This document shows positions 1 through 17,452 of a stretch of DNA of 64,000 nt, piece after piece. The DNA is from Candidatus Poribacteria bacterium. GTDB lineage: Bacteria > Poribacteria > WGA-4E > WGA-3G. Positions within the stretch are counted from its first letter, which is position 1; every line of letters begins with the position of its first letter. Made by a program: the position numbers and the translations under genes. Under the pieces are notes generated by a model. That model was given only the letters and a program-made list of their open reading frames with translations, was not told the origin of the DNA and ran no database searches. The stretch spans positions 32,001 to 96,000 of the forward strand of contig CBDBFU010000007.1 of the NCBI GenBank assembly GCA_965205025.1, read 5' to 3'.

Positions 1-1253
1 CGTGATTGCTCAGAGTGAAATTGTTGATTGTTTTTTTTCGCAATGATAGTACTATTCTTACCTTTTTTATTTATTAAGTCTATTCGAACAACATTTGTAA
101 AAACTCCATCAAACGGACGATTGAGATGTATGATTCTTTTTATAGTAGTTTGATTAAGGATTTTTTCTCTTATATCTTTATGGACTTTTATATTAAGAAT
201 TGATTCGGGTAAGATATAGGATAGTGTAGCACCATCTTTCAAATACTTGATACCTGCTTCAAGAAAATATGAAAATGCTTCGTTTGAATTAATATGTTGG
301 TATTTCTTTTTAAGCATTTCCTCTTCCTCTGTAGAAAAATGTGCTCCCCAAGGTGGATTTGTTATCACTAAATCAAAGTGTGGATAATCTTTAGTTTCTT
401 CAAGTAGTGAATTTATGCAATGAATATTTGGTTTAAATTTATGTTTAGGGAACTTTATTAACAGATTTATTTTTGCAAGCCTAACTGCATTCTTGTCAAT
501 TTCAAAACCCCATAGATTCGCAGGATTATCTATTTTTTCTGATGCTGATAGTAAAAACTGTCCGGTTCCACAACATGGATCAAGGACAGTGTGGTTCCTT
601 TTAATGTTTTGGTTAACTGCCTCCAAGACAATGTGCTTTGGTGTATAATAAGTGCCGGTTTTTGCTCGTTCTCCTACATTTAGTAGCGTTTGATATAGGA
701 ACCCTAAAAAATCACAATTTAATGGTATATTAGTATTAAGAATATCATTATAGTGTTCAGTGATCTGCACACCATCCATATTACCTAACCAGTCTTCAAT
801 TTCATCTTTTACAAAATCATTAGTATAACAAATTTGTCTATTTGGAAATTGGTCTATATCTATAATTAACCCGACCTGTTTTAGCAGATTCAGTGCAGTT
901 ACAAGTAATACTATGTCTCTATCAAGACTATTGTACTTAAAGAGTTCAGTAATTCTTTGAATTGACTCAAAAACATCTTGATTATCCGCATATTCTATAG
1001 GGATAATGTTAGAGTGAGATCTTCTTTTATTAGCTCGTTTATTGAGTTTTGCTAAAGAACCGTTAGCGAGATTATTTTTTATCTCTTCTATATGAGAGAT
1101 TAAAAATCTATTATTTAGGTGTGTTGAGGCGGGTTTAATATGTCCAAGTTTTACCCAATTTCTAACAGTTGCATTAGAAACACCTAATAACTCTGCAACT
1201 TCTTTATATGTGAGGAAGTCTTCGTTGGGATGGTCAAATAATTCAATAGACAT
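1..1253 (-). CDS. N6-adenine DNA methyltransferase (gamma-type order) with N-terminal HTH; runs off the window start
   Basis: Read manually from ATG at 1253: MSIELFDHPNEDFLTYKEVAELLGVSNATVRNWVKLG (HTH), then in the same frame GTYYTPKH, motif I VLDPCCGTGQFL and motif IV DLVITNPPWG. Confidence 0.85.
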   Translation of the reverse strand, partial: MSIELFDHPNEDFLTYKEVAELLGVSNATVRNWVKLGHIKPASTHLNNRFLISHIEEIKNNLANGSLAKLNKRANKRRSHSNIIPIEYADNQDVFESIQRITELFKYNSLDRDIVLLVTALNLLKQVGLIIDIDQFPNRQICYTNDFVKDEIEDWLGNMDGVQITEHYNDILNTNIPLNCDFLGFLYQTLLNVGERAKTGTYYTPKHIVLEAVNQNIKRNHTVLDPCCGTGQFLLSASEKIDNPANLWGFEIDKNAVRLAKINLLIKFPKHKFKPNIHCINSLLEETKDYPHFDLVITNPPWGAHFSTEEEEMLKKKYQHINSNEAFSYFLEAGIKYLKDGATLSYILPESILNIKVHKDIREKILNQTTIKRIIHLNRPFDGVFTNVVRIDLINKKGKNSTIIAKKNNQQFHSEQS

Positions 1254-5375: not shown

Positions 5376-6835
5376 CAATACCTTCGCCAAAAACACTTGA
5401 ATAAAAAGGGTGTTTGTCCTAAAGTTTTAAAATATCATTTTAACTTAGAAAGGACACACACCCATGCCAGAAATTATAGCATTATTTACTGTATTTAATC
5501 TATGTTTATCCACTACTATGATCCGCCAGTTATGTCAAGTTGTATTTGCCCTGCTTGCGATGACAGGTCAGGTCACAATGTTAAATATCTCCCGTTGGAC
5601 ATCAAAAGGAGGGAGTTATCGTACGATACAACGCTTCTTTAGCACAGATCTCCCTTGGCCAAAGATGTGTTGGCTCTTTTTCAAAAAATATCTGTTTGAT
5701 CCTAAAAGTTTGTATATCCTTGTAGCAGATGAAGTCACGGTGTCAAAAACTGGGAAAAAAACTTATGGTATAGATCGCTTCTTCTCCTCATTACATGGAA
5801 AACCGATTTCCGGTTTGTCATTTTTAGCGGTGTCCTTAGTAAGCGTCAAAGACAGGTGTTCTTACCCAATGATGATGGAACAAATCGTGCGTAGCAACGC
5901 ATCAGCCAATATGGATGTGTCTGCAATCGAAGATCAGGAGAATACACAGAAAGCCATAACAAAACGAGGGCGTGGTCGCCCCAAAGGGAGCCGGAATCGA
6001 AACAAAAAGGATGTTGTGTTCAGCAATACTTTGAAACAACTTCAAACTATGGTGAAATCATTTCTCAAACAGATGGGAGATTGTATCAAACTCCGTTATT
6101 TTGTGCTTGATGGATATTTCGGACACAATAATGCGCTACAAATGGTATCACAATGTGGTCTCCATCTCATTTCAAAACTTCGCACAGATGCTGCGCTCTA
6201 TTATCCACCAACGACACCGTATAAAGGTCGTGGACGCCGCGCCCCTCTATGGGGATCGTTTCAATCCACAACAAATGGATAACAAATGGCGTGTCTCTGT
6301 TGAAACAACCGATAACATCAGAACCGAAGTGTATCAAGTACACTTGCGTCATAAGCAGTTTGCGGATCCTCTCAATATTGTTTGTCTTCTCAAGACGCAT
6401 CTGCTGACAGGACAAAAATCACACGTGTTATTGTTTAGTTCTGACCTAAAACTGAGTGCTCTAAAGATGATTGATTATTACTCCCTTCGTTTTCAAATAG
6501 AGTTTAACTTCAGAGACGCAAAACAGTATTGGGGGTTGGAAGATTTTATGAATGTCAAAAAAACACCTGTGAACAATGCAGCAAACTTATCCTTGTTTAT
6601 GGTAAATGTGAGTGCGAAAATGGCAAACACATTTCGGTCTAATAACACGGCGTGTAGCGTATTAGATTTGAAAGCAAAATACCGAGCTATGAAGTATTTA
6701 GAGGAAACATTAAAAATACTTCCGCAAAAACCTGAACCTATTGTTATTGAGCAAATCACACAGCACCTTAGTTCTATCGGTGCTATTCATCACACACAGT
6801 TAGAACTAAGCACAGGATAATTGGCGAAGGTATTG
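5376..6835 (+). mobile_element. IS4-like DDE insertion sequence, 1460 bp
   Basis: Perfect 15-bp terminal inverted repeats CAATACCTTCGCCAA (5376-5390 and 6821-6835); 6-bp direct repeat TTATAA on both flanks (5370-5375, 6836-6841). Confidence 0.9.
5464..6820 (+). CDS. DDE transposase split across two frames near 6230-6250
   Basis: VADE and VLDGYF acidic residues plus the IS4-type YREK signature YSLRFQIEFNFRDAKQYWGL. Confidence 0.85.
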
Positions 6836-7058
6836 TTATAATTGTGGGTTATATAAATTCAATTAAAAATACCACAAATTAGAGTAAAAGTCAAAATGTT
6901 TCTTACTGAATGGGATTGTTATCTAATTTTACGGATTTGGGAGAGTTTTGAAAGGTGGTTTTGAACGGGAAGAGTATAACATGTAAACTAACAGGATGCG
7001 GTACATATATTAGGGACTTTGGAAGCGAGTTTCATTAATAGGAATGTACCTTCTGCTG

Positions 7059-8645
7059 TTAGTTGGTTTCTATAGAAACTTTGGCATTAAAAGCGTTTAT
7101 AGTATCTAATCCTCCCCATTGATCTCCAGTTGCACACAATTTGAAATGTTGTCCTTGATCAAACTTGTACTTAAGTTGAGCGGAGTTCCCTGGGAATATG
7201 CCCCAATATTTAGTTAGTGCGTCAATGGCATTTTTGTATTCATCACTTTGTTGGTCATTCCAAACGTCAGGATCTATTCCGTCTGGAGGTGTTTCCGATG
7301 GTAGTATTTTATCTCCATCAAGTAGATAGAATATTCCAATACCTTTGTCTTTACCGACTTGGATATCGATCGTGAGTGTGCCACCAGTTTCAAATGCTGT
7401 AGTATCTATACCGATAATAGTGTAATCCTGATGTGCGACTTTTAGAGTGCGAAAAGTGTTTAAGATTGTTTGTGATGGTTGTTCATGAGTCAGGATTAGA
7501 TCTCCTAAACCGGGACGTTTTCCCTTTAATGATTCTTTAATGAATGATAGATATAGTTCTTCCTCATTATCGTATTCATCTAAATCGTCCAAGAATTGAT
7601 TATAGTCAAGACTTCCCATCAATTCAAAATCATGTGAGATGACGAAACAGTCTACTGGTGATCCCTGTTTACATCCCTTTAGAATTGTTTTTGCTAAAGG
7701 ATGGTTTGTGTCGAAGGTTGTACCTTCACGTTTTCGTCTATTTGCAATTGGTTCTCTTAAACTGGTCATTCTCCCTAAATCTGCATTTGGCACCCAAGTA
7801 TTGATCAGGTATTCGTTTAAGAAATCAATAATATGATCTTTTGAGAGAGCACCTGCTCTCAGGATTTTTCCACTCCCTCAGCATGATTCGTCAGCGAGGG
7901 GACCGTCAATTGCTATAGCATGTATCGGTTTCTGTAAAGTAGGTGCTAATTCCAAAGCCTCTTCTAATGACACCCAGTTAATTTGTTGGGATTTATAATA
8001 TCGCAGCAACAGCAGACGTTCTGCTTTTTCTTGTATGATTGACTCAATGAATTCTACGTCTTCAAGTTTTGTATCAGTCCATAATTCCATGCGTGGACAG
8101 AAACCGATATCCGCATAGGTGCTTTCTTCTTGTGTCCAACCGATATCGAAGTTTACTGTAGTCGGTGGAACATACATGTTGAAGGAGACTACCTTTTTTT
8201 CTATGTGGTTAATTGTGAGATGTCCAGTAAATTGTGAGGGTGTAAGCCAGCCACTCTCCATCTTGAATTGTGCATGGATACGGAAATGTATTTGAGCGAT
8301 TTCATTATTGTATGCACGCAGGCATGCCCACAATCCGCGTGAATCTCCTGAATCAATATGGAGTTGCAGATGTGGTCGGGGATAGAGTTGTTTCAATAGG
8401 GTTAACACTGCATCTTCTTGGATCTGCCAACAATCTCCTACTACGACTGGATCTGATGAAAGGAATGCCTGAAAGACAGAATTAGTGTACTGTTTCACGG
8501 GTTCAGCAACCTGAATATTTGCCAATTCCTCCCATTCTTTATAATACCCGTAAGAGGAATACTCAAATGGAGCGATATAACCATTTATGGACACATTTGC
8601 GTTCGAATCAAGGTTGAGTATGATTTTGTTAGTTGGATCATTCAT
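7059..8645 (-). CDS. Selenoprotein N-like protein, copy 1 (528 aa with Sec)
   Basis: ORF 7878-8645 continues in frame through TGA 7878-7880 into ORF 7059-7793: DGPLADESC-U-GSGKILRAGALSKDHIIDFLNEYLINTW. Shares WACLRAY, FRIHAxF and TPSQFTGH motifs with SELENON; hairpin downstream of the UGA. Confidence 0.88.
7845..7860 (-). promoter_or_regulatory. Candidate bacterial SECIS apical hairpin, copy 1
   Basis: GAGAGC-AGGU-GCUCUC starting 17 nt after the UGA. Confidence 0.75.
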
Positions 8646-8646
8646 T

Positions 8647-10185
8647 TTACTTTTCCTCTACAGTAATTTTTGCCAGAAATGCATTGATACTTCCTTTCTC
8701 GTCAGATGTCCACCCCATAGCAACCAATTTAAATATCTGTCCCTGTTCAAAACGGTGTGTCATTTGTCCAATTTCACAAGGATCATACCAACCTATATCG
8801 TGTGCATCATCAAACATTATTACTTCCGGACGTTTATGAATTGGATCAAAGGTAAGTTTATGGTCGGCATTGAGCAAAAAGAACGTGCCATAAGCCTTTT
8901 CGTCCCCTACTTCCAAATCAATGGTAAGAGTTCCTCCTTTTTCAAAGTTTGTGGCATCAATTACGATAACTTTGTAGTCTTGGTGTCCATATTCTGGTTT
9001 TCGAAAAACGTCCAGTATCTGTTGTGAAGGCTGGTCAGGGGTGAGAATAGTGTTACCGAATCCCGGGAGTTTTCCATCTAAAGCATCCTTGAGAAACAGG
9101 AGGTAATTCTGGCTTTCCAAAGTGCCGTCTTCACGTCGATTTTCCCCAAGGTAATCATTGACGGCTACATGTCCTATTGCTTCCAGGATAGGAGATATGA
9201 CCCATGTATCCACTGGACCTCTTCGCCATTTGTGCCCAATGATTGTGCGTGCCAATGGAGGCATTTTCTCAAATCCTTGGGAATCCCGCATGTGTTTAAG
9301 GTCAGTATTACGTACCCACATATTGATAAAATTTTCGTTCAGGAATTCGATGATTCGTTCGTCGGAGAGGACACCTGCCCTCAAGTTTTTGCCACTTCCT
9401 CAGCATGCTTCGTCTGCGAGGGGACCATCGATTGAAATGGCATGGATCGGTTTCTGTTGCTCTTGTGATATTTTTAATGCTTCATCAAATGGCACCCAGT
9501 TGATTTGCTGCGACTTATAAAAACGTTGTATTAGCGTATTTTCGACCTCTTCACAGGTGATTGAAGTTATGAATGCAGTTTCCTGATGGACATAATGCTT
9601 TTCTGCCCGAAGTTCAATATGCGGACAAATCCCACCACCAGTACTATAATAATAGTCAGGTTCGTCTTTATATTTTTTCCAATTAACATCGAACAATGTC
9701 CCTTCAGGAACCCGCATCTGGAAAAACGCCACACTCTTATTAATACGATCGATCACCAGATGTCCGGCAAACTGTGAAGGGGTGAACCAACCGTCTTCTA
9801 ATGCGAATTCTGCATGGATACGGAACGTAATATCGGCGAGTTCATCGCTATAAGCGCGGAGACATGCCCATAAACCACATGAATCACCCCTGTTAATGTG
9901 CATATCCAGATTCGGTTTGGCATGAAACTGCCTCAACAAGGTAAGAGCCCCTTGGTCATCAATCTCCCAGTAGTCTCCAACGGAGACAGGTTTATCTGGA
10001 AGGAACGCCTGGAAAACCGTAGTAGGATACGTCTTTTCTGGTTCAGCAACGCAGAAATTTGCCAATGCATCCCATTCTTCATGGAAGTTGGGGTTCATGT
10101 GCTCAATCGGTGCGATAACACCTGTGAGGGAGACTTCTGCATCATTGATAAGTTTAAGTGTTATTTTATTTTCCGTTTTTTTCAA
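8647..10185 (-). CDS. Selenoprotein N-like protein, copy 2 (512 aa with Sec)
   Basis: In-frame TGA 9400-9402: DGPLADEAC-U-GSGKNLRAGVLSDERIIEFLNENFINMW. Confidence 0.88.
9367..9382 (-). promoter_or_regulatory. Candidate bacterial SECIS apical hairpin, copy 2
   Basis: GAGGGC-AGGU-GUCCUC starting 17 nt after the UGA. Confidence 0.75.
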
Positions 10186-11719
10186 TTTTATTTTCCTTTA
10201 CAGAAATTTTTGCGAGAAAGGCGTTAGTACAGAATTCTCCTTCGTACCAATAGCCTGAAGCCCCTAACCTAAAGATCTGACCCTGGTCAAATTGGTGTTT
10301 AATCTGTAATTCATCATCTGGTTCACCCCAGGTTTCAGCGAGTGCATCACTCGGTTCTTCTTCATCAGTAGATAGTTCACCTTTTTCAGCAAATAGATAA
10401 AACTCACCATCCCCTTTTTCTCTACCGATTTTAATATCAATTGTAAGTGTGCCTCCATTCTCAAAAGATGTTACGTCAATTACGATTACAGTATAATCTA
10501 AATAACCTACAGTAGGTGTTCTAATAACATCCAACACCTCCTCTGAAGAATTCTCAGGAGTAAGTACAATATTTCCCAATCCGGGTTCTTTTCCCTCCAA
10601 CGCATCCTTTAGAAACATTTTGTAATTTTCAGCACTGGTAGGTATACCCGGTCCTGCGTTGACTTCAAGTTCCCTTATCTGTTTTTTACCTAATAAAACA
10701 AGTTCAGAGGATAGAATGTATGAATCTACTGGAGATCCTTTTCTTGATCCAGTTTTAGTGCCTTTAAGGATAGCTTGTGCTAATGGAAGTGTTGCGTCAA
10801 ACGGATTTCCTTCCCGTTCGCGTTTTTTGGCAATCGGTGCTTGTAATCTACGTACACGTCCTAATTCAGAGTTGGATACCCATGTATTGATAAAGTTATT
10901 ATTTAGAAATTCAATAATTGTGTTTTTTGAGAGGACACCTGCCCTCAATCCTTTACCACTCGCTCAGCATGATTCATCGAAAAGCGGTCCATCTAATATG
11001 ACAGCATGGATGGGTTTCTGTTGTGCCAGTGCCATTTCATGTGCTTCCTGCAGCGATACCCAGTTGATTTTTACTAAATTGTAGAAACGTAATATCAATA
11101 TGCGTTCGGCTTCCTCTTGTGTGATTGAGGTAGCGTATTCAACGTTCTGAAATGTTATGTCAGAACGGAGTTCTATTTTTGGACAATATCCAATTTCGCT
11201 TCCAACTTTATCCTGATAAGCATCAAAGTTTATTGTACCATTTGGCACATACATATTAAAGAATGCGACGTTTTCTGTGGACCGGTTAATTACGATGTGA
11301 CCAGTAAATTGCGAGGGTGTAAATCTACCTCCAATAAGTGTGAATTCTGCATGAATTCGAAACACGATGTCAGCATAATCATCATTATATGCGCGTAGGC
11401 ATGCCCACAGACCGAGTGAATCCCCATTATTGCAGTCCAAATTCAAGTTAGGGTTGGTATGAAGTTGGCTTAGTATTTCTAACACACCGTCCCTGATTTG
11501 CCAACATTCACCAACCGAAACGGAATCCGAAGGTAGAAATGCATTAAACACAGAAGTTGGATGTTGTTTTTCCGGTTCCGAGACTCGTAGATTTGCTAAG
11601 ACATCCCATTCTTCATGGAAGTTGAATTGTGTGTATTCTATTGGAGCAATATAACCTTTTAAGGCTACTTTCGTATCGCTATTAAGTGTGAGTGTAATTT
11701 TCTCAGATATTGTGTTCAT
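10166..11719 (-). CDS. Selenoprotein N-like protein, copy 3 (517 aa with Sec)
   Basis: In-frame TGA 10964-10966: DGPLFDESC-U-ASGKGLRAGVLSKNTIIEFLNNNFINTW. Confidence 0.88.
10931..10946 (-). promoter_or_regulatory. Candidate bacterial SECIS apical hairpin, copy 3
   Basis: GAGGGC-AGGU-GUCCUC starting 17 nt after the UGA. Confidence 0.75.
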
Positions 11720-11778
11720 TGGTCTTCTCTATTTTTAAAATCAGTTTAAATTATTACTAAACTTTTGACAATTTTATG

Positions 11779-11910
11779 TTATACCATTTCTATAAATGAT
11801 TCTCCCATGATTAGGTGATATTTATGTCTTGAAATACTGCACAAACTGGAAGTTTGTGCTACATTAAAGAGATTTTATTAATGGGACTTTAATTACCAGA
11901 AATGGTATAA
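11779..11910. mobile_element. MITE-like element, family A, with internal GTAG-type REP hairpin
   Basis: Terminal inverted repeat TTATACCATTTCT...AGAAATGGTATAA; internal GCACAAACTGGAAGTTTGTGCTAC; related copies at 17149-17267 and 18351-18464. Confidence 0.7.
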
Positions 11911-11911
11911 T

Positions 11912-13228
11912 TTATAATTCAGACTCTATAAAAATATTTGCAAAAAAAGAATTAGTGCTTCCTTTTTCATTAATGAAAGTGTTGCCAATTGCTCTCAACT
12001 GAAATATTGTGCCTTTGTCAAAATAGTGTGTTATTCTTCCAGTTTTACCACTCGGAATGCCTGATGCGGTAGCAACTATGCTACTTTGTACTCCTTCCTT
12101 AGAGCGTTCGGCTTTGCCATCAAATAGGGAAAATGATCCAGAAGCATTTGCGCTACCTACCCAGATTTCAATGGTAAGGGTGCCACCATCCTTGTAGGCT
12201 GTCGTATCAATTTGAACAATAGTGTAATCATTAGAATCTGCGTTTGGCGTTCGGAATATTCCTAAAACATTTTTTGACGACTCCTCGCTGTTGAGTACTA
12301 CATTTTCAATTGGATCAATGGACGATATGCTATCTGATTCTGTAGTAGCCCCATTGCTCTTACCAGTGACATCAGAATGTCCTACTCGCTTTCTCACATC
12401 CATTTTTGATGGCACATTCAGAACTGCGGGTACATCAACAATAGCAACAGTCTTTTCTGATATTGCATCATAATCATACGGTTCTTGGAAATGGGTTAAG
12501 TATTGATTACCTATCCCATACATCAAGGTCATAACAACAAAGATTGAAGCGGCGATTATCCACGGAACAATAGGTTTATTTTCAGGGGTAATAGAAGGTT
12601 TTATTCGACAAACCTCTTGGAGAATATTCTTTGTTAGATTTGGCGAGATTTTAAAATGTTCTAATGCTTCCCTAATTATTAATTCATTTTTCTTTAAACG
12701 TTGTCGACCACGTCGGAGACGACTCTTAACAGTGCTTAGTGATACACCTAACATTTTACTAATTTCTGCACATGTCATTTCTCCTAAATAATGAAGCGTC
12801 ATCACAGTCCGTTCACTCTCCTGCAACTTTGATAGTAGTGTCTTTACTACTTCACGTTGAGAGTTGACAGTAGCTTTTTCCTTATCCTCTGCTACATATC
12901 TGGAATAAGCATCATTTTCTATCAAGTCATTGACCTTGTCATCTAACACCTCGGTTTGTAGATGGTTTTTTCGTAACCAGGCAAGACAACACCGTGAAGT
13001 AACAACATAAAGCCATCCAAGAAACTGTTTTGGATCTTTAAGAGTTGACAACTTCTGATATACTCTCAAAAATGTATCTTGAGTAATATCCTCAGCAATA
13101 TGGAAGTCCCCTATTTTCCGCCATGCAATTGCATGAACATGCTTTTGATATCTTTCAACTAAGGTGGAAAAAGCAGTGTCATCACCTTCAAGGATACGGT
13201 GAATTAATACTACATCGTCGTTTTCCAT
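11912..13228 (-). CDS. ECF sigma-70 factor with transmembrane helix and a C-terminal domain shared with the SelN-like proteins
   Basis: Region 2 AEDITQDTFLRVY..FLGWLY; region 4 EISKMLGVSLSTVKSRLRRGR; hydrophobic WIIAASIFVVMTLMYGI; C-terminal FRTP..DYT..IDTT..GGTLTI domain; start at ATG 13228 after GAGG. Confidence 0.88.
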   Translation of the reverse strand: MENDDVVLIHRILEGDDTAFSTLVERYQKHVHAIAWRKIGDFHIAEDITQDTFLRVYQKLSTLKDPKQFLGWLYVVTSRCCLAWLRKNHLQTEVLDDKVNDLIENDAYSRYVAEDKEKATVNSQREVVKTLLSKLQESERTVMTLHYLGEMTCAEISKMLGVSLSTVKSRLRRGRQRLKKNELIIREALEHFKISPNLTKNILQEVCRIKPSITPENKPIVPWIIAASIFVVMTLMYGIGNQYLTHFQEPYDYDAISEKTVAIVDVPAVLNVPSKMDVRKRVGHSDVTGKSNGATTESDSISSIDPIENVVLNSEESSKNVLGIFRTPNADSNDYTIVQIDTTAYKDGGTLTIEIWVGSANASGSFSLFDGKAERSKEGVQSSIVATASGIPSGKTGRITHYFDKGTIFQLRAIGNTFINEKGSTNSFFANIFIESEL

Positions 13229-13314
13229 TAGATACCTCAATGAAGACTTCCCATTACTCATGCAAGTCAGATACATTTTGTATGAAAGAACATGCTAACA
13301 ACCTGAACCTTTCT

Positions 13315-14964
13315 CTATCTACTTTGTTCTATTGATATTGTTAGTAGAAATGCATTCATGCTTCCTTCATCACTAAACCAATTACCCGTAGCCCCGAGTT
13401 TAAAGACTTGACCTTTCTTAAATTTATACCTGATGATTTTACTATTACCGGGTGATATGTCCCATGCGTTGACGAGTGCGTCTCTTGGAACCCCTTCCGT
13501 GGGAATCTTTGTCTGATTATCAAACAGATCAAATGAACCACTTGCTTCAGCACTCCCGACCGAGATATCAATAGAAAGTATACCGCCGTTAATAAAGGCA
13601 GTGGTGTCCAATTTCAATGACAGTATAATCTTGATGACCCCTTTTTGGTGTTCGAAAAACGTTGAGGATTTGTTGTTGAGATTTCTCTGCAGTGAGTTTA
13701 ACTTTTTGCCCTTTCACTATTGCAGGATCTAAGTTATCTATCACTTCAACATCTAACCCTGGGTATTCCCCTGCTAATGCCTCTTGTAAAAACACGAAGT
13801 AATCCCGTCCCCAGTTTGATGATGGAAATTCATTGACCGGTTGTCTCCCCATAACTTCAAGATCTGTTGAGATTACTAAAGAGTCTGCTGGTGAACGCTC
13901 TTTCCAACCTTTGATGACGGCTTGAATTAATGGGTCATTTTTGTCTAATTTACGAAATCCCTCTTCCTGTCTTTTCGTGATATAAGCGTGCATTACTGAT
14001 GTGCGTCCTAATTCTATATTTGATACCCAAGTATTAATAAACTTATCGTTCAATAATTGTATATTCCGTTTATTAGAGAGGGCAACTGGCCCTCAAGGCT
14101 TTGCCACTTCCTCAGCAGGCTTCGTCATTCATCGGACCATCTATTGAGATAACATGGATCGGTTTATCTTGTTTCTTGTGCCAACCTTAACGCATCATCA
14201 AGAGGAACCCAATTAATTTGGTAAAAACTATAAAAACGATGTGCAAGAGTCATCTCTGCTGCCTGTTGTGTAATGGATTCTTCGAATTGGATATTCTCCA
14301 AAATATATCTTGTGTCCCACTACGGAGTTCCATTTGTGTACAGACACCAGAATCTATTATACTATAATCCCTATCTTTATATTTTTTCCATCCAACATCA
14401 AAGTTAATTACCCCATCAGGGACATACATATTGAAGAACACTACCTTTTTTTCCATGCGATCAAGTATGAGATGTCCCTTAAACTGTGATGGCGTGAACC
14501 GACCGTCTTTTAACTCAAACTCTGCATGAATTCGAAACACGATGTCAGCATATTTATCGTTATAGGCACGTAGACATGCCAACAATCCATAGGAATCTCC
14601 GGAGTCAATGTGCATAGAATACTTTGGTTTTTGGGAGGAGTTGTTGCAATAATGGGAGTATTCCTTCCGCATTTATTTTCCACAGTTCACCAACTGAAAC
14701 CGGTTTGTCTGGCAGAAAAGCCTGAAAAACCGTTGTTGGATGCTGTTTTTCCGGTTCGTTTTCCCGTAGATTTGCTAATGCATCCCACTCCAAATGGAAA
14801 TTGTTTATAGTTATCTCAATCGGAGCAATGAATGCGTTGACTGATATCTGTGATGTATCTTCAATAGTAAGCAATACTTTTTCTCCGTTCACTAAACTGT
14901 CATCTGCGAAAATATGGCAGTTGATTAAAATCAAAATAGAACAATACAAAATTACGATTTTCAT
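13315..14964 (-). CDS. Selenoprotein N-like protein, copy 4, with signal peptide; about five frameshifts (errors or pseudogene)
   Basis: Fragments 14605-14964, 14250-14672, 13589-14053 and 13315-13617 tile a full copy; DGPMNDEAC-TGA(14112-14114)-GSGKALRA read directly; N-terminus MKIVILYCSILILINCHIFA. Confidence 0.75.
14078..14094 (-). promoter_or_regulatory. Candidate bacterial SECIS apical hairpin, copy 4
   Basis: GAGGGC-CAGUU-GCCCUC starting 17 nt after the UGA; the loop carries the extra base that shifts the frame. Confidence 0.6.
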
Positions 14965-15026
14965 TTCAAGAATCCTTTCTATTTGTGTATTTATAGTAAA
15001 CTTTAGATTTAATTAGACACTTTACT

Positions 15027-15070
15027 TGTAGGAGCGACCTCCTGGTCGCGACCGGGAGGTCGCTCCTACA
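15027..15070. repeat. GTAG-type REP palindrome (44 bp)
   Basis: TGTAGGAGCGACCTCCTGGTC-GC-GACCGGGAGGTCGCTCCTACA, near-perfect inverted repeat. Confidence 0.75.
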
Positions 15071-15463
15071 GAAGAGGTGTGGGACGCGAACGTAAGTTGA
15101 TCCAATAGAAAATGTAGTATTCATTTTATTGTTTACTATAATACACAATGAATTTACTGCTATCAACAGTATTTCTACACATAGAAACTCGGACATTATT
15201 GTTATGGCAAATATTTTTGTATACTTTTATTTAGGTCATACGATCACTCACAAGTTAGTCAACGAGAAATAAAAAATGACAACCTAAAAGAAATCATGCA
15301 ACATTTCCTAATTGAACAATATAGTGACGCGTGTAATGTATAAAACGGTTGCGTAATTCTGCATATTCTTGATGAAATAATCGAGATATAATCATTAAAA
15401 TAACATACTCAGATATAGTAATTATGATTTTACCTGTCTAAAATATGTAGGTGACAACTTGGT

Positions 15464-17126
15464 TTATTCTACAGATATTCTTGCTTGAAATGCATTGACA
15501 GAATCTTTACTATCCTTTATTTCCGAGGCTGCTAATGCAAACCTGAAATGTTGGCTACGGTAGAATGGGTACGAAATTTTCGCTGTTCCATTTTGAGGGA
15601 CATCTGTTGCATTTGCAATGGATTGATCGTATCGTTGTCCTCGTTTTTGTGGGAATTGAATGTCTCCTTCGTATAAATAGCAGGAAGTAATGAATTCTGC
15701 ACTTCCAAACCGTATATCAATGTTAAGTGTGCCACCATTTTCGAATGCGGTGGCATCAATATTTACAATAGTGGACTCCTGAAAACCTGCCTTGGGAGTT
15801 CTTACAACATCTACCACTTCTAATGTGGATTGTTCGGAATTGAGAACTACATCTAAACCAGTTATGTAAGGTATTAATGGATTTTTTTGTTCATTTGTAT
15901 CTTCCACATCTTCTAACAGATAAGCGAATGAATTGTCAGTATTGAATCCAGGTAATTTTCTTTCTAATGACTCAATGAGAAAGAGACGGTAGTTTTCTGC
16001 TCTTGTTCTACCCCCATCCCAATCGTGTCCATCGTAAAGATATTTGTTCAAGGGTAGTTTACCTATCACTTCAAAATCAGGTGATATAACAAGGCAATCA
16101 ACAGGAGATCTCTCATGCCAACCCTCTTTAATTGCTTGTGCTAAAGCATGATTCGTATCAAACGTTTTTTCCTTGTCCGCATATCTTTTAGCGATGTATT
16201 CCCGGGAACTCGGTTTCCGTCCTGCTTCAAAATTGGATACCCATGTGTTGATGAAGTTATCGTTTAGAAATTTAATGACACGTTCATTTCCGAGGACACC
16301 TGCCCTCAAGTCTTTTCCGCTCCCTCAGCAGGCTTCATCAGTAAGTGGTCCATCAAGTGAAATAGCATGAACAGGTTTCTGTTGCTTTGGTGCTAATTCA
16401 AGTGCTTCTTCTAACGAAACCCAGTTAATCTGTTGTGAATCATAGAATTTCAGAATTAGGTTGTGTTCTGCTTCCTCTTGACTAATGGCTTGTGTGTATT
16501 TGACACCATTTAAGACCTCTTCTGAACCTGTCCATAGTTCCATTCTTGAGCAGTAACCACAGTCAGTGATCCACCGTGGTTTATCCCAGTCATCTAATAT
16601 AGTTTCCCAATGTACATCGAAGTTTAATGTGCCTTCCGGTACACCCATTTGAAAGTATGATACAGATTCTTGTGTGCGGTCAATTACAAGGAGTCCAGCA
16701 AACTGTGAAGGTGTAAACCAACCATCAGTGAGTGCGAATTCAGCATGAATCCGGAATACAATATGAGCGAGTTGATTGTTGTATGCCCGTAAACATGCGC
16801 GGAGACCTTTTGCTTCCTCTATACCGTACATTTCTACACGCATTTCTAAAGATGGATTAGGATGGAGTTGTTTTAACAGTCTTGTTGCCGTGCCTTGTTT
16901 TATGTCCCAGCATTCACCCACTGCGACAGATTCAGGTGGGAGAAAGTCATGAAAATCGGAATGAGAATACTGACTTTCTGGTTCTGCGGTTTGCCAATTT
17001 GCTAATGCATCCCATTTTTTCGTGAAAGTTTCCAGCAGTATGTTGGATTGGTGCTATTGTTGCATTTACGGTGATTTCTGTTTTACTGTTTATGTTTAAG
17101 TTAATTTTATCTGTATGTGTATTCAT
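15464..17126 (-). CDS. Selenoprotein N-like protein, copy 5 (about 553 aa with Sec); +1 homopolymer frameshift at 17015-17020
   Basis: In-frame TGA 16325-16327: DGPLTDEAC-U-GSGKDLRAGVLGNERVIKFLNDNFINTW; N-terminus MNTHTDKINLN..TIAPI..NFHEKWDALAN restored by removing one base. Confidence 0.85.
16292..16307 (-). promoter_or_regulatory. Candidate bacterial SECIS apical hairpin, copy 5
   Basis: GAGGGC-AGGU-GUCCUC starting 17 nt after the UGA. Confidence 0.75.
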
Positions 17127-17148
17127 CTGATTTCTCTAATTTATCTAA

Positions 17149-17267
17149 TTATACCATTTCTATAAATTATTGTCTCATTAGGCGGTGATTATGGTAGTCA
17201 TTTTTCAGGTCACAAACTGGAAGTTTGTGGTACAAAAAAGAGACATTTTCAATTAGAAATGGTTTAA
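17149..17267. mobile_element. MITE-like element, family A
   Basis: TTATACCATTTCT...AGAAATGGTTTAA ends and internal CACAAACTGGAAGTTTGTG hairpin. Confidence 0.65.
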
Positions 17268-17452
17268 GTACGTGTGATTGGGTTTCTTCAACAGAGAGAA
17301 AAAATTATAATCCTCTTATACACATTTATGGATGCACTTTGGTGTTCTTATGGGTGTAAAATGCAATAAGATAATAGTCTAAAAATTGGTATATCTGTAA
17401 GAAGGAAGAGTTTCAGGTTTGTGACCTGTATGTCGCTCCTACAGAAAGCTGG

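Follow-up and report, generated by a model that had tools for sequence, protein, structure and literature searches.

We describe here a bacterial array of genes related to animal selenoprotein N (SELENON), each interrupted by an in-frame TGA, in a 64,000-nucleotide stretch of a Candidatus Poribacteria genome (the window; contig CBDBFU010000007.1 of assembly GCA_965205025.1, positions 32,001 to 96,000). We consider it highly likely that these are SELENON-family genes that each yield one polypeptide, with the UGA probably read as selenocysteine (Sec) at the direction of a hairpin, and that they represent an old bacterial family amplified in Poribacteria. SELENON (SEPN1) is a eukaryotic ER-membrane glycoprotein that is mutated in the SEPN1-related myopathies.

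The array and its relationship to SELENON

The array (window positions 7059-17126) holds five SELENON-related paralogs in tandem, all on the minus strand (Table 1), and two more lie on another contig. The stop codon of copy 2 directly adjoins the ATG of copy 1, and copies 3 and 2 overlap by 20 nt at the start of the latter. As the earlier sequence-only reading had expected, annotation knows these genes as hypothetical proteins, present only in split form. The host bacterium is sponge-associated.

Table 1. Features of the SelN-like array and their coordinates in the window.
Feature	Position	Strand	Remarks
SelN-like copy 1	7059..8645	-	528 aa with TGA read as Sec; no signal peptide
SECIS-like hairpin, copy 1	7845..7860	-	GAGAGC-AGGU-GCUCUC; stem 18 nt after TGA
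In-frame TGA, copy 1 (proposed Sec codon)	7878..7880	-	DGPLADESC-U-GSGKILRAG
SelN-like copy 2	8647..10185	-	512 aa with TGA read as U; no signal peptide
SECIS-like hairpin, copy 2	9367..9382	-	GAGGGC-AGGU-GUCCUC
In-frame TGA, copy 2	9400..9402	-	DGPLADEAC-U-GSGKNLRAG
SelN-like copy 3	10166..11719	-	517 aa with TGA read as U; no signal peptide
SECIS-like hairpin, copy 3	10931..10946	-	6-bp stem
In-frame TGA, copy 3	10964..10966	-	DGPLFDESC-U-ASGKGLRAG
ECF sigma factor fusion gene	11912..13276	-	inside array; Pfam and NCBIfam matches
SelN-like copy 4	13315..14964	-	frameshifted in assembly, whole in read-derived contigs; N-terminal signal peptide (MKIVILYCSILILINCHIFADD...)
SECIS-like hairpin, copy 4	14078..14094	-	one extra loop letter in assembly (place 14088)
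In-frame TGA, copy 4	14112..14114	-	DGPMNDEAC-TGA-GSGKALRA
SelN-like copy 5	15464..17126	-	485 aa as joined in assembly with TGA read as U; no signal peptide
SECIS-like hairpin, copy 5	16292..16307	-	6-bp stem
In-frame TGA, copy 5	16325..16327	-	DGPLTDEAC-U-GSGKDLRAG

Judged by sequence similarity, the window genes appear to be bacterial members of the SELENON family. In a database of 5.8 billion proteins, the N-terminal half of copy 1 (as translated with table 11) matched four Sarcophilus proteins named 'selenoprotein N-like' or EF-hand at E = 2.8e-10 to 5.1e-10, the marsupial match at 2.8e-10 covering 80% of the query at 25% identity. The full-length bacterial relative P0001 aligns with the animal protein P0123 at a BLASTP E-value of 2e-31 and across the Sec site. 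These two results bear out the earlier claim of homology on both sides of the TGA; the C-terminal half of copy 1 itself matches P0123 at E = 3e-4 and over no more than 36 residues, since the P0123 gene model is erroneous past the site. P0121, one of the marsupial models, stops at ...GALDDQSC, the same column at which the window ORF ends in ...DGPLADESC, and 93 of the 116 database relatives with coverage here terminate right after this Cys. The ACL, FRIHAEF, SQFTGH, DxGxxPxMEL and terminal xFLxEGL segments occur in the order first proposed, and all are present in wombat SELENON (P0254). No Pfam or NCBIfam model matched the SelN-like genes to confirm their membership independently.

The window proteins gave no Pfam match to an EF-hand, and they start at the conserved N-domain. 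The suggestion that they lack the animal transmembrane anchor thus stands, while the companion suggestion that they are leaderless fails for copy 4, which has a signal peptide. Anchor and EF-hand define the animal ER protein rather than the core that the two groups share.

Copy 1 consists of an N-domain, a thioredoxin-like domain and a C-terminal beta-sandwich. The AF2 model of P0001, which is 46% identical to copy 1, has a pLDDT of 86.7 and contains a thioredoxin-like unit (beta-alpha-beta-alpha-beta-beta-alpha) whose strand 294-299 and helix 310-317 flank the site; its Foldseek matches include the Thioredox_DsbH-type domains 3ira and 7tkv. Bacteria and animals share a conserved P-V-[DE] motif ahead of strand 3. 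The model thus predicts that a thioredoxin-like fold surrounds the redox motif in the SelN-like family, a fold which in SELENON we take to be of the UAS type. Counting against our explanation, the modelled protein is not one from the window but a relative in which Gly occupies the site.

The C-terminal beta-sandwich, of about 125 aa and sometimes present twice, occurs on most Poribacteria forms. It is also found on the ECF gene of the array, which combines a sigma factor (Pfam Sigma70_r2, r4_2 and ECF: PF04542, 5.9e-14; PF08281, 2.4e-15; PF07638, 9.4e-8; NCBIfam TIGR02937, 100 bits, cut-off 42.9), a membrane helix and a C-terminal domain of the same family, which matches its counterpart in copy 1 (BLASTP 2e-21, 32% identity). 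A one-letter discrepancy in the assembly at 13250 makes the 5' end of this gene uncertain. Elsewhere the C-terminal domain is seen on exported or membrane proteins, but four of the five window copies that bear it lack a signal peptide, an odd combination that weighs against our explanation.

The in-frame UGA, its hairpin and the selenocysteine machinery

All five TGA positions named in the sequence-only reading proved exact. The table-11 ORFs of copies 1, 2, 3 and 5 terminate at these TGAs, and reading TGA as U joins them to the downstream frames, as had been claimed for the same four copies. The whole genome has seven SelN-like loci with exactly one TGA in each full-length match, a pattern beyond chance. 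Elsewhere in the genome 211 of 1262 long ORFs terminate at TGA, which serves there as a normal stop and has not been reassigned genome-wide. Beyond Poribacteria the frame after the TGA is open in 23 of 23 loci, and a TGA occupies the site in all of 80 further loci from three phyla, accompanied by a hairpin that is either that of the window genes or an alternative. Sec commonly stands where relatives of a selenoprotein have Cys, and Cys at the U position, which the earlier reading had proposed to look for, was indeed found in other bacteria: homologs P0133, P0137, P0152, P0183 and P0144 read ...ESCCGSGK or ...EACCATGK.

The Sec machinery, also on that list, is present in full. The genome has selA (599 bits), selB (366 bits) and selD (364 bits) and a tRNA-Sec gene that adjoins selB (78.5 bits; called by ARAGORN as tRNA-SeC with anticodon TCA), all of them above the curated cut-offs; selD itself contains one TGA. 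Across the phylum selA occurs in 163 of 176 genomes.

A 6-bp stem starts 18 nt past every TGA (nt 21-36 counted from the U of UGA) and closes on a loop of AGGU or AGUU. Pairing is complete in 150 of 150 cells across 25 sequences, with double-sided changes at three of the six pairs, and the covariation score was reached by none of 500 shuffles; in copy 1 a compensatory A-U pair replaces the G-C of the other copies. When the same peptide was recoded synonymously only 4-5% of recodings had all six pairs, compared with six out of six of the genome's own copies, five of which use AGG, the rarest Arg codon of the genome. A bacterial SECIS is characterized by a stem-loop shortly downstream of the UGA and a G within the first two loop positions, and the window hairpins have both. 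Rfam contained no family that matched the hairpin.

Alternative readings and the origin of the family

The UGA might instead be a genuine stop, each locus then making an N-terminal protein and a separately initiated C-terminal one. Gene callers read the loci in just this way, and database entries are N-terminal fragments that run to the Cys or C-terminal fragments that begin at a downstream Met. The runs listed as carrying the locus include none of RNA, a result that favours neither view. We nevertheless judge a genuine stop extremely improbable: in copy 1 the first start codon comes 28 codons past the TGA and the intervening codons show conservation as far as animal SELENON, full-length relatives occur naturally with a codon for Gly, Trp or Cys in place of the TGA, and the break would cut the thioredoxin-like unit between its first strand and the active-site helix. 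Nucleotide-level selection on a hairpin after the TGA, and a genome equipped for Sec, also speak against it. Alternatively, a standard tRNA (Trp, Cys or Gly) might read through the UGA, or it might be recoded locally without selenium. Close orthologs alternate between TGA and the Gly codons GGA and GGC, and one subfamily has TGG (Trp), so other residues are tolerated; moreover, the hairpin is retained in nine of nine Gly-form orthologs and in one Cys-form locus, the only one whose DNA was obtained. It may therefore have another purpose, or may persist after a recent loss of Sec, and its failure to separate Sec from non-Sec forms counts against our own explanation, as does the fact that the stem encodes a conserved peptide, LRAGxL, common to Cys forms. 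Even so, decoding without selenium seems to us very unlikely, given that animal SELENON has its Sec in this column and distant bacterial relatives have Cys there, that tRNA-Sec, selA, selB and selD occur together in a genome from a phylum where selA is general, and that TGA retains its normal role as a stop in other genes.

Two further alternatives concern the history of the array. Copies 4 and 5 might be decaying pseudogenes left behind by amplification, since this assembly shows at least four frame changes in copy 4 and one in copy 5 near its 5' end, where a one-letter discrepancy near 17015 detaches the first ~40 codons. We find this unlikely. Contigs of four public runs from four studies have one letter fewer at 13250, 13608, 14088, 14172 and 14628 and two fewer at 14303, and one letter is absent at 17015 in run X1 and at 17018 in run X4. 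Each frame change coincides with such a missing letter, and most of the letters lie in homopolymer runs; the frame problem of copy 4 is an artefact of the assembly. One of the four runs has no other difference from the window over 2.7 kb, and the X1 contig equals window 7000-9176 with 0 differences. Deleting eight letters by script gave open frames of 556 aa (one TGA), 563 aa (one TGA) and 446 aa (no TGA), and with the extra letters removed copies 4 and 5 are whole with a single TGA each; copy 4 is not a broken gene. The other alternative is a recent acquisition from the sponge host followed by amplification, a transfer that the sequence-only reading had also raised. In its favour, the available text of PMC3473315 and PMC7539508 places the SelN family in animals and a few algae, DNA of the locus is found in sponge metagenomes among others, and on a 194-column alignment an AU test does not reject a joint clade of animals and the window sequences (p = 0.293). 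Such a transfer is nonetheless highly improbable and did not find support: on a 297-column alignment the same grouping is rejected (AU p = 0.0015), and both trees place the window clade within bacterial sequences as sister to the Cys forms, with the animals apart in a long-stemmed clade of their own. These are quick trees that include no sponge sequence, and the tested group was chosen once the first of them had been seen. The genes also have the bacterial in-ORF hairpin, and neither EF-hand nor membrane anchor. Furthermore, the family was found in single copy in one Myxococcales genome and in 13 of 301 sampled Planctomycetota, with lake and soil among the sources of the latter. The amplification had been proposed as specific to one lineage, a view that gives way to the finding that 131 of the phylum's 176 genomes have the family, mostly in several copies.

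We therefore return to our preferred explanation of a bacterial selenoprotein family. Each SelN-like gene would give rise to a single polypeptide, its in-frame UGA most likely being decoded as Sec by the SelA, SelB, SelD and tRNA-Sec of the genome, with the hairpin inside the coding sequence acting as a bacterial-type SECIS. The Cys-Sec pair would cap the N-terminus of the first thioredoxin-like helix, where thioredoxins have CxxC. We consider it likely that a reversible selenenylsulfide there takes part in thiol/disulfide exchange, which would make the protein a reductase or a redox sensor. The family would be old in bacteria, with Sec and Cys forms in Poribacteria, Planctomycetota and Myxococcota, and would have expanded into tandem arrays in Poribacteria, where most copies appear to have gained the C-terminal beta-sandwich, probably for partner binding or targeting.

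Comparison with known systems

The central domain of the P0001 model resembles Thioredox_DsbH/DUF255 (3ira, 7tkv; Foldseek E = 3.3e-4), with TM-scores that are low because a single domain aligns; at the sequence level there was no Pfam match to this family, and a PDB profile search gave 0 hits at E <= 1. Its C-terminal domain matches, at the level of fold, the collagen-binding ColH CBD 3jqw, the pre-peptidase C-terminal (PPC) domain 5sv5 and PliG (E = 4.5e-5, with a target TM of 0.64 over 115 columns at 18% identity). As is usual for PPC domains, it is appended to the C-termini of varied exported proteins (S9 peptidase, BlaR1-type M56, ECF sigma/anti-sigma fusions); unlike PPC, CBD and PliG, to which identity is 8-18% with no Pfam match, it is here also on leaderless proteins.

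Our literature search found no description of a bacterial SelN. The main text of a marine selenoproteome survey (PMC2398784) has no occurrence of 'SelN' or 'selenoprotein N', and that of a 2026 prokaryotic selenoproteome review none of 'SelN', 'Planctomycet' or 'Poribacteria'; the lone 'selenoprotein N' match in the review seems to come from a reference titled 'Novel selenoprotein neighborhoods'. With the SelB-dependent bacterial selenoproteins covered in the main text of the survey (Prx-like, DsbA-like, Trx-like; PMC2398784) the window genes share a UGA followed by a hairpin, a thioredoxin-like fold, Cys homologs at the same column and an organism with selA, selB, selC and selD, but their Cys and Sec are adjacent (C-U) and not spaced as CxxU or UxxC.

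The closest comparison is with SELENON itself. Both the beta-rich N-domain and the thioredoxin-like domain show significant sequence similarity, the FRIHAEF, SQFTGH, NxFINTW and P-V-[DE] segments are conserved, a common final helix, xFLxE[GS]L, closes the protein or its shared part, and the Cys-Sec pair is at the identical position, in copy 1 even as SCUG. An adjacent C-U pair also resembles the GCUG terminus of animal thioredoxin reductase. Unlike SELENON, the window proteins have no N-terminal anchor or EF-hand, being leaderless or bearing a cleavable signal peptide, and they add one or sometimes two beta-sandwich domains; their putative Sec signal is an in-ORF hairpin as compared to a 3'-UTR SECIS, and multi-copy tandem arrays take the place of one gene. 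A five-gene bacterial array could offer an easily studied model of this human muscle-disease protein, which is still poorly understood.

Five selenoprotein N-like genes, each split at a TGA

Under the standard bacterial code each of the five paralogous genes (copies 1 to 5) appears as a pair of ORFs, and reading TGA as a residue (U) fuses the pairs of copies 1, 2, 3 and 5 into single frames (528, 512, 517 and 485 aa respectively) that share DGPxxDE[S/A]C-U-[G/A]SGKxLRAG as the motif at the TGA. The sequence-only reading had located all five TGAs exactly, as ORF and motif reading found one in each gene at the expected place (Table), and its expectation that annotation would return hypothetical proteins also held: each gene is split into two of these, which makes the family invisible to standard annotation. 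No Pfam or NCBIfam family matched the SelN-like proteins, and the same was true of wombat SELENON (P0254), so the SELENON identity was tested by direct search. The N-terminal half of copy 1, translated with the standard code and compared with longer proteins among 5.8 billion sequences, matched 13 full-length Poribacteria-type relatives and four Tasmanian-devil proteins named “selenoprotein N-like” or “EF-hand domain-containing protein” (E = 2.8e-10 to 5.1e-10). The Tasmanian-devil model P0121 stops at ...GALDDQSC, which is the animal Sec codon, and the window ORFs stop at ...DGPLADESC. P0001, a full-length relative with Gly at the site, aligned with the animal protein across the site (BLASTP 2e-31). 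The SELENON segments listed in the sequence-only reading were all found in P0254 in the same order (VACL...FRIHAEF, CPSQFTGH, DLGYLPQMEL, SGRTLRE...LLNEKFISTW, FPVES and the terminal EEFLREGL). Taken together, the database matches, the end of P0121, the P0001 alignment and the P0254 segments establish the proposed homology to SELENON on both sides of the UGA and an identical Sec column. No structure of a relative has been solved: a sequence search of the PDB gave no match with the protein, nor with the family profile at E <= 1. The best Protein Atlas cluster for P0001 (0.78) consisted of Poribacteria proteins and is a lead only.

Copies 3, 2 and 1 lie head to tail and closely packed: copy 2 starts 20 nt before copy 3 ends, and the ATG of copy 1 directly follows the stop of copy 2. 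Homology to the C-terminal domain of the paralogs is seen in the C-terminal domain of the ECF sigma gene between copies 4 and 3 (BLASTP 2e-21). Two further tandem copies, with one TGA each at the same site, lie on contig C4 of the same genome among unrelated neighbours (TruD, Laminin_G_3, WD40, AIM24 and an enolase-family gene). One of them, copy 7, carries its C-terminal beta-sandwich as a tandem pair of domains, and 11 codons ahead of the end of its TGA=U frame there is a second TGA, probably its true stop, since its relatives terminate at ...ISVEEN. Two other C4 genes each have one TGA listed within the TGA=U frame (Table), which may stem from read-through upstream of the true start, from errors in the assembly or from additional recoding. 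Scans for promoters (31 versus 34.8 from shuffles) and terminators (10 versus 7.2) did not exceed expectation, and the sole Rfam match on 6800-17400 was a miRNA-like chance hit (E = 0.072) far under the gathering score.

Coordinates of the features discussed in the text
Feature	Position	Strand	Basis or remarks
Five-gene array	7059-17126	-	five paralogous genes
Upstream-ORF ends (TGA)	7878, 9400, 10964, 16325	-	standard-code ORFs
TGA of copy 4	14112	-	same motif as other copies
ECF sigma factor, membrane helix and C-terminal domain fusion	11912-13276		between copies 4 and 3; Pfam and NCBIfam
IS-type transposase adjoining copy 1	5464-6820	+	two overlapping ORFs (DDE_5 1.4e-34; DDE_Tnp_1 4.5e-5)
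Intergenic element upstream of copy 3	11770-11919		44-nt inverted arms
Intergenic element upstream of copy 5	17147-17253		44-nt inverted arms
Intergenic element upstream of copy 4	~14991-15141		44-nt inverted arms
Copy 7	L002 1489-3474, G000:C4		two C-terminal domains
selD	G000:C4:104148-105074 (L017)		one in-frame TGA
UvrD-type helicase and RNase T-like exonuclease fusion	L157 95-3361, G000:C4	-	one TGA within TGA=U frame
Enolase-superfamily gene	L157 17401-18552, G000:C4	+	one TGA within TGA=U frame
Beta-rich N-domain	P0001 residues ~28-245		AlphaFold2 model, part 1
Thioredoxin-like beta-alpha-beta-alpha-beta-beta-alpha unit	P0001 residues ~255-412		AlphaFold2 model, part 2
C-terminal beta-sandwich	P0001 residues ~430-556		AlphaFold2 model, part 3

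As assembled, the window has at least four frame changes in copy 4 and one in copy 5. We aligned Logan contigs from four public runs, belonging to four studies, on this region: in all four runs one letter is absent at each of 13250, 13608, 14088, 14172 and 14628 and two at 14303-14304, and a further letter is absent at 17015 in run X1 and at 17018 in run X4. Apart from the extra letters, an X1 contig is identical to 11879-14550. Most places of the eight extra letters are homopolymer runs, and removal of the eight by script yields open frames of 556 aa and 563 aa, with one TGA each, and of 446 aa for the sigma gene. Given that the letters are missing from the four runs and that the frames open once these are removed, the five SelN-like genes are most likely all intact, and the damage to copy 4 and to the 5' end of copy 5 is confined to this assembly. 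The frameshifts that the extra letters introduce into two genes are false, and the start of the ECF sigma gene may be affected as well; further split genes in the genome may be due to such letters, and the split in the adjoining transposase could be a real frameshift or a further assembly indel. The short intergenic element looks like a very abundant MITE-like repeat: its summed contig depth exceeds 1000 in three runs, compared with tens elsewhere, and does so in all four runs for two of its three bins, and contigs connect its three places to one another.

Probable Sec decoding of the UGA and the downstream hairpin

We consider it very probable that the UGA of these genes is decoded as selenocysteine. 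The sequence-only reading had suggested looking for the Sec machinery elsewhere in the genome, and all four genes are present: selA (599 bits), selB (366 bits), selD (364 bits) and, directly adjoining selB, selC (78.5 bits), which ARAGORN calls as tRNA-SeC with anticodon TCA. TGA is also an ordinary stop in this genome, ending 211 of 1262 long ORFs. The peptide pattern LFGxL[DL]DESC led to 80 further loci (57 in Poribacteria, 18 in Planctomycetota, one in Myxococcales and four unclassified), in all of which the next codon is TGA, and the frame stays open past it at all 23 loci outside the Poribacteria. Cys at the U position had been proposed as a further thing to search for, and five representatives from other bacteria do carry Cys-Cys there; some Poribacteria forms carry Gly, Ser-Gly or Trp. 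The co-occurrence of selA is uninformative on this question because almost every genome of the phylum has the gene (163 of 176); the seven SelN-positive genomes with no selA match are all draft assemblies (140-720 contigs), and completeness does not exceed 86% in six of the seven. Since selD itself contains one in-frame TGA, the selenophosphate synthetase here is probably also a selenoprotein. Among the public runs listed as containing the array, none is RNA.

A separate observation concerns one exported Poribacteria subfamily (P0001, P0023 and P0047; loci L032-L040), in which Sec is replaced by Gly (GGA/GGC) or Trp, but not by Cys, or the Cys-Sec pair by Ser-Gly, and in which orthologs 81-87% identical differ at the Sec site. 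It looks as though proteins that are otherwise conserved have lost the redox site several times.

A hairpin that might act as a bSECIS follows every TGA, its stem beginning 18 nt downstream (GAGGGC-AGGU-GUCCUC; GAGAGC-AGGU-GCUCUC in copy 1). Across 25 sequences from this genome and its relatives all 150 pair cells are standard and three of the six pairs are changed on both sides, and none of 500 shuffles attains the covariation score. The stem coincides with the codons of the conserved peptide LRAGxL, and random recoding of that peptide with the genome's codon usage gives the six pairs in 4-5% of cases only, compared with six of the six own copies, five of which use AGG, the genome's rarest Arg codon; this argues that the pairing is under selection at the nucleotide level. 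The 80 further loci mostly have a GAGAGCG-GGUC-CGCUCUC hairpin after the TGA, and several Planctomycetota loci have a different one of the CCCUC-CGUGC-GAGGG type. We also considered the hairpin as a means of telling Sec from non-Sec genes and rejected it: all nine Gly-form orthologs and the single Cys-form locus with DNA keep the hairpin, so that its presence alone is no proof of SECIS function. Of the 18 matches from a metagenome pattern search, 17 were unrelated Cys-rich sequences.

Domain architecture and proposed chemistry

P0001 shares 46% identity with copy 1; its AlphaFold2 model, built from an alignment of 149 sequences (mean pLDDT 86.7, pTM 0.74), has three parts (Table). The redox site falls in a loop preceded by strand 294-299 and followed by helix 310-317, the place at which thioredoxins carry CxxC, and a P-V-[DE] motif common to bacteria and animals stands ahead of the third strand, where thioredoxin folds have their cis-proline loop. 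Most likely the vicinal Cys-Sec pair would form a selenenylsulfide that cycles in thiol-disulfide exchange.

The sequence-only reading had pictured soluble proteins without the animal anchor. Copies 1, 2, 3 and 5, like both C4 copies, have no leader and start directly at the conserved domain. Copy 4 has at its N-terminus a signal peptide of typical form (MKIVILYCSILILINCHIFADD), and among the bacterial relatives the majority likewise carry a signal peptide or a lipoprotein leader.

A C-terminal beta-sandwich of the same kind closes ECF sigma/anti-sigma fusions and, as a side observation, an S9 prolyl oligopeptidase-type and a BlaR1-type M56 protein (P0170, P0218), a distribution that marks it as a mobile module of these bacteria. 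ECF sigma factors are also fused directly to SelN in P0137, a Cys form, and P0217, which is cut at the Sec codon. These fusions, together with the window sigma factor that shares the beta-sandwich of the paralogs, hint that SelN and beta-sandwich modules may in rare cases act as extracytoplasmic sensor domains. We do not claim a general link between ECF sigma factors and SelN, the association being only occasional: none of the 80 genome loci has an ECF-like match within 3 kb. The 23 loci outside the Poribacteria have no conserved neighbour genes.

Distribution, origin and relation to known selenoprotein N

The array had been put down to an expansion specific to its lineage, a reading that does not fit the wider distribution. 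The family occurs in 131 of 176 genomes of the phylum (109/111 in family f1, 10/11 in f2, 11/29 in f3 and 0/24 in the other eight families), with up to 17-18 matched stretches in one genome, and f2 has tandem triplets of shorter forms (~370 aa) that lack the C-terminal domain. Among the best matches listed, all but nine have exactly one TGA, and one of these also has a TAA; the nine without TGA are orthologs of P0001, in which TGA alternates with GGA/GGC. Of the 301 Planctomycetota genomes sampled, 13 matched, each in one or two stretches and nine at E <= 1e-40, and the five genomes of phyla other than Poribacteria that were checked directly had a single match each. When 1.84 billion representatives were searched with a profile, 755 matched at E <= 0.001, and 93 of 116 database proteins spanning the N-domain terminate exactly after the Cys.

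Transfer between sponge host and symbiont had also been raised as a possibility. We built trees from the N-domain (78 rows) and from both domains (46 rows), in which the animals are cnidarian, mussel and marsupials. In both, the window clade is nested among bacterial sequences beside Cys forms, with SH-aLRT values of 98-100% in the tree of both domains, and the animals form a separate long-stemmed clade; a second Poribacteria clade, with the LFG motif, is placed among Planctomycetota. Grouping the animals with the window clade was not rejected by the AU test on 194 columns (p = 0.293), and on 297 columns the same grouping gave p = 0.0015. On these trees and tests, which contain no sponge sequence, a recent transfer from the sponge host appears unlikely. 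The clades nearest to the animals are of the DDQSC type, several with bacterial lipoprotein-type leaders; cluster look-ups put names to 4 of 20 representatives and yielded no taxon for these clades.

We speculate, with more doubt than confidence, that SelN was originally a bacterial extracytoplasmic redox protein, with Sec and Cys forms in Planctomycetota, Myxococcota and Poribacteria, which eukaryotes took from bacteria, adding the anchor and EF-hand. In sponge-associated Poribacteria it would have radiated into many copies, some exported and others leaderless, some bearing one or two beta-sandwiches that bind a target, and a few fused to ECF sigma factors. These would constitute a major unannotated part of the symbiont selenoproteome that is tied to host life.

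SELENON is a human disease protein (SEPN1-related myopathies) whose biochemistry is only partly understood, and its soluble bacterial relatives would lend themselves to structure determination, redox-potential measurements and the trapping of substrates, the natural Cys-Cys forms needing no Sec machinery. The bacterial selenoproteome gains a large family, often present in many copies in a phylum of sponge symbionts, and the origin of an “animal” selenoprotein is reopened as a question. A poribacterial homolog may once have been mentioned by SelN researchers. Literature searches, and passages from PMC10298544, PMC7474598, PMC13188914, PMC4807772 and PMC2398784, gave no description of a bacterial or poribacterial SelN, and SelN is absent from the main text of a 2008 marine survey and of a 2026 review of prokaryotic selenoproteomes. 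In passages from two further papers SELENON is reported only from animals and a few algae (PMC3473315, PMC7539508). The bacterial family thus joins the known SELENON core to a Sec signal of bacterial type and to domain architectures that are new, and it includes Cys forms that occur naturally and extensive tandem arrays; the ER-lumen location of animal SELENON agrees with the leaders found on most of its bacterial relatives.
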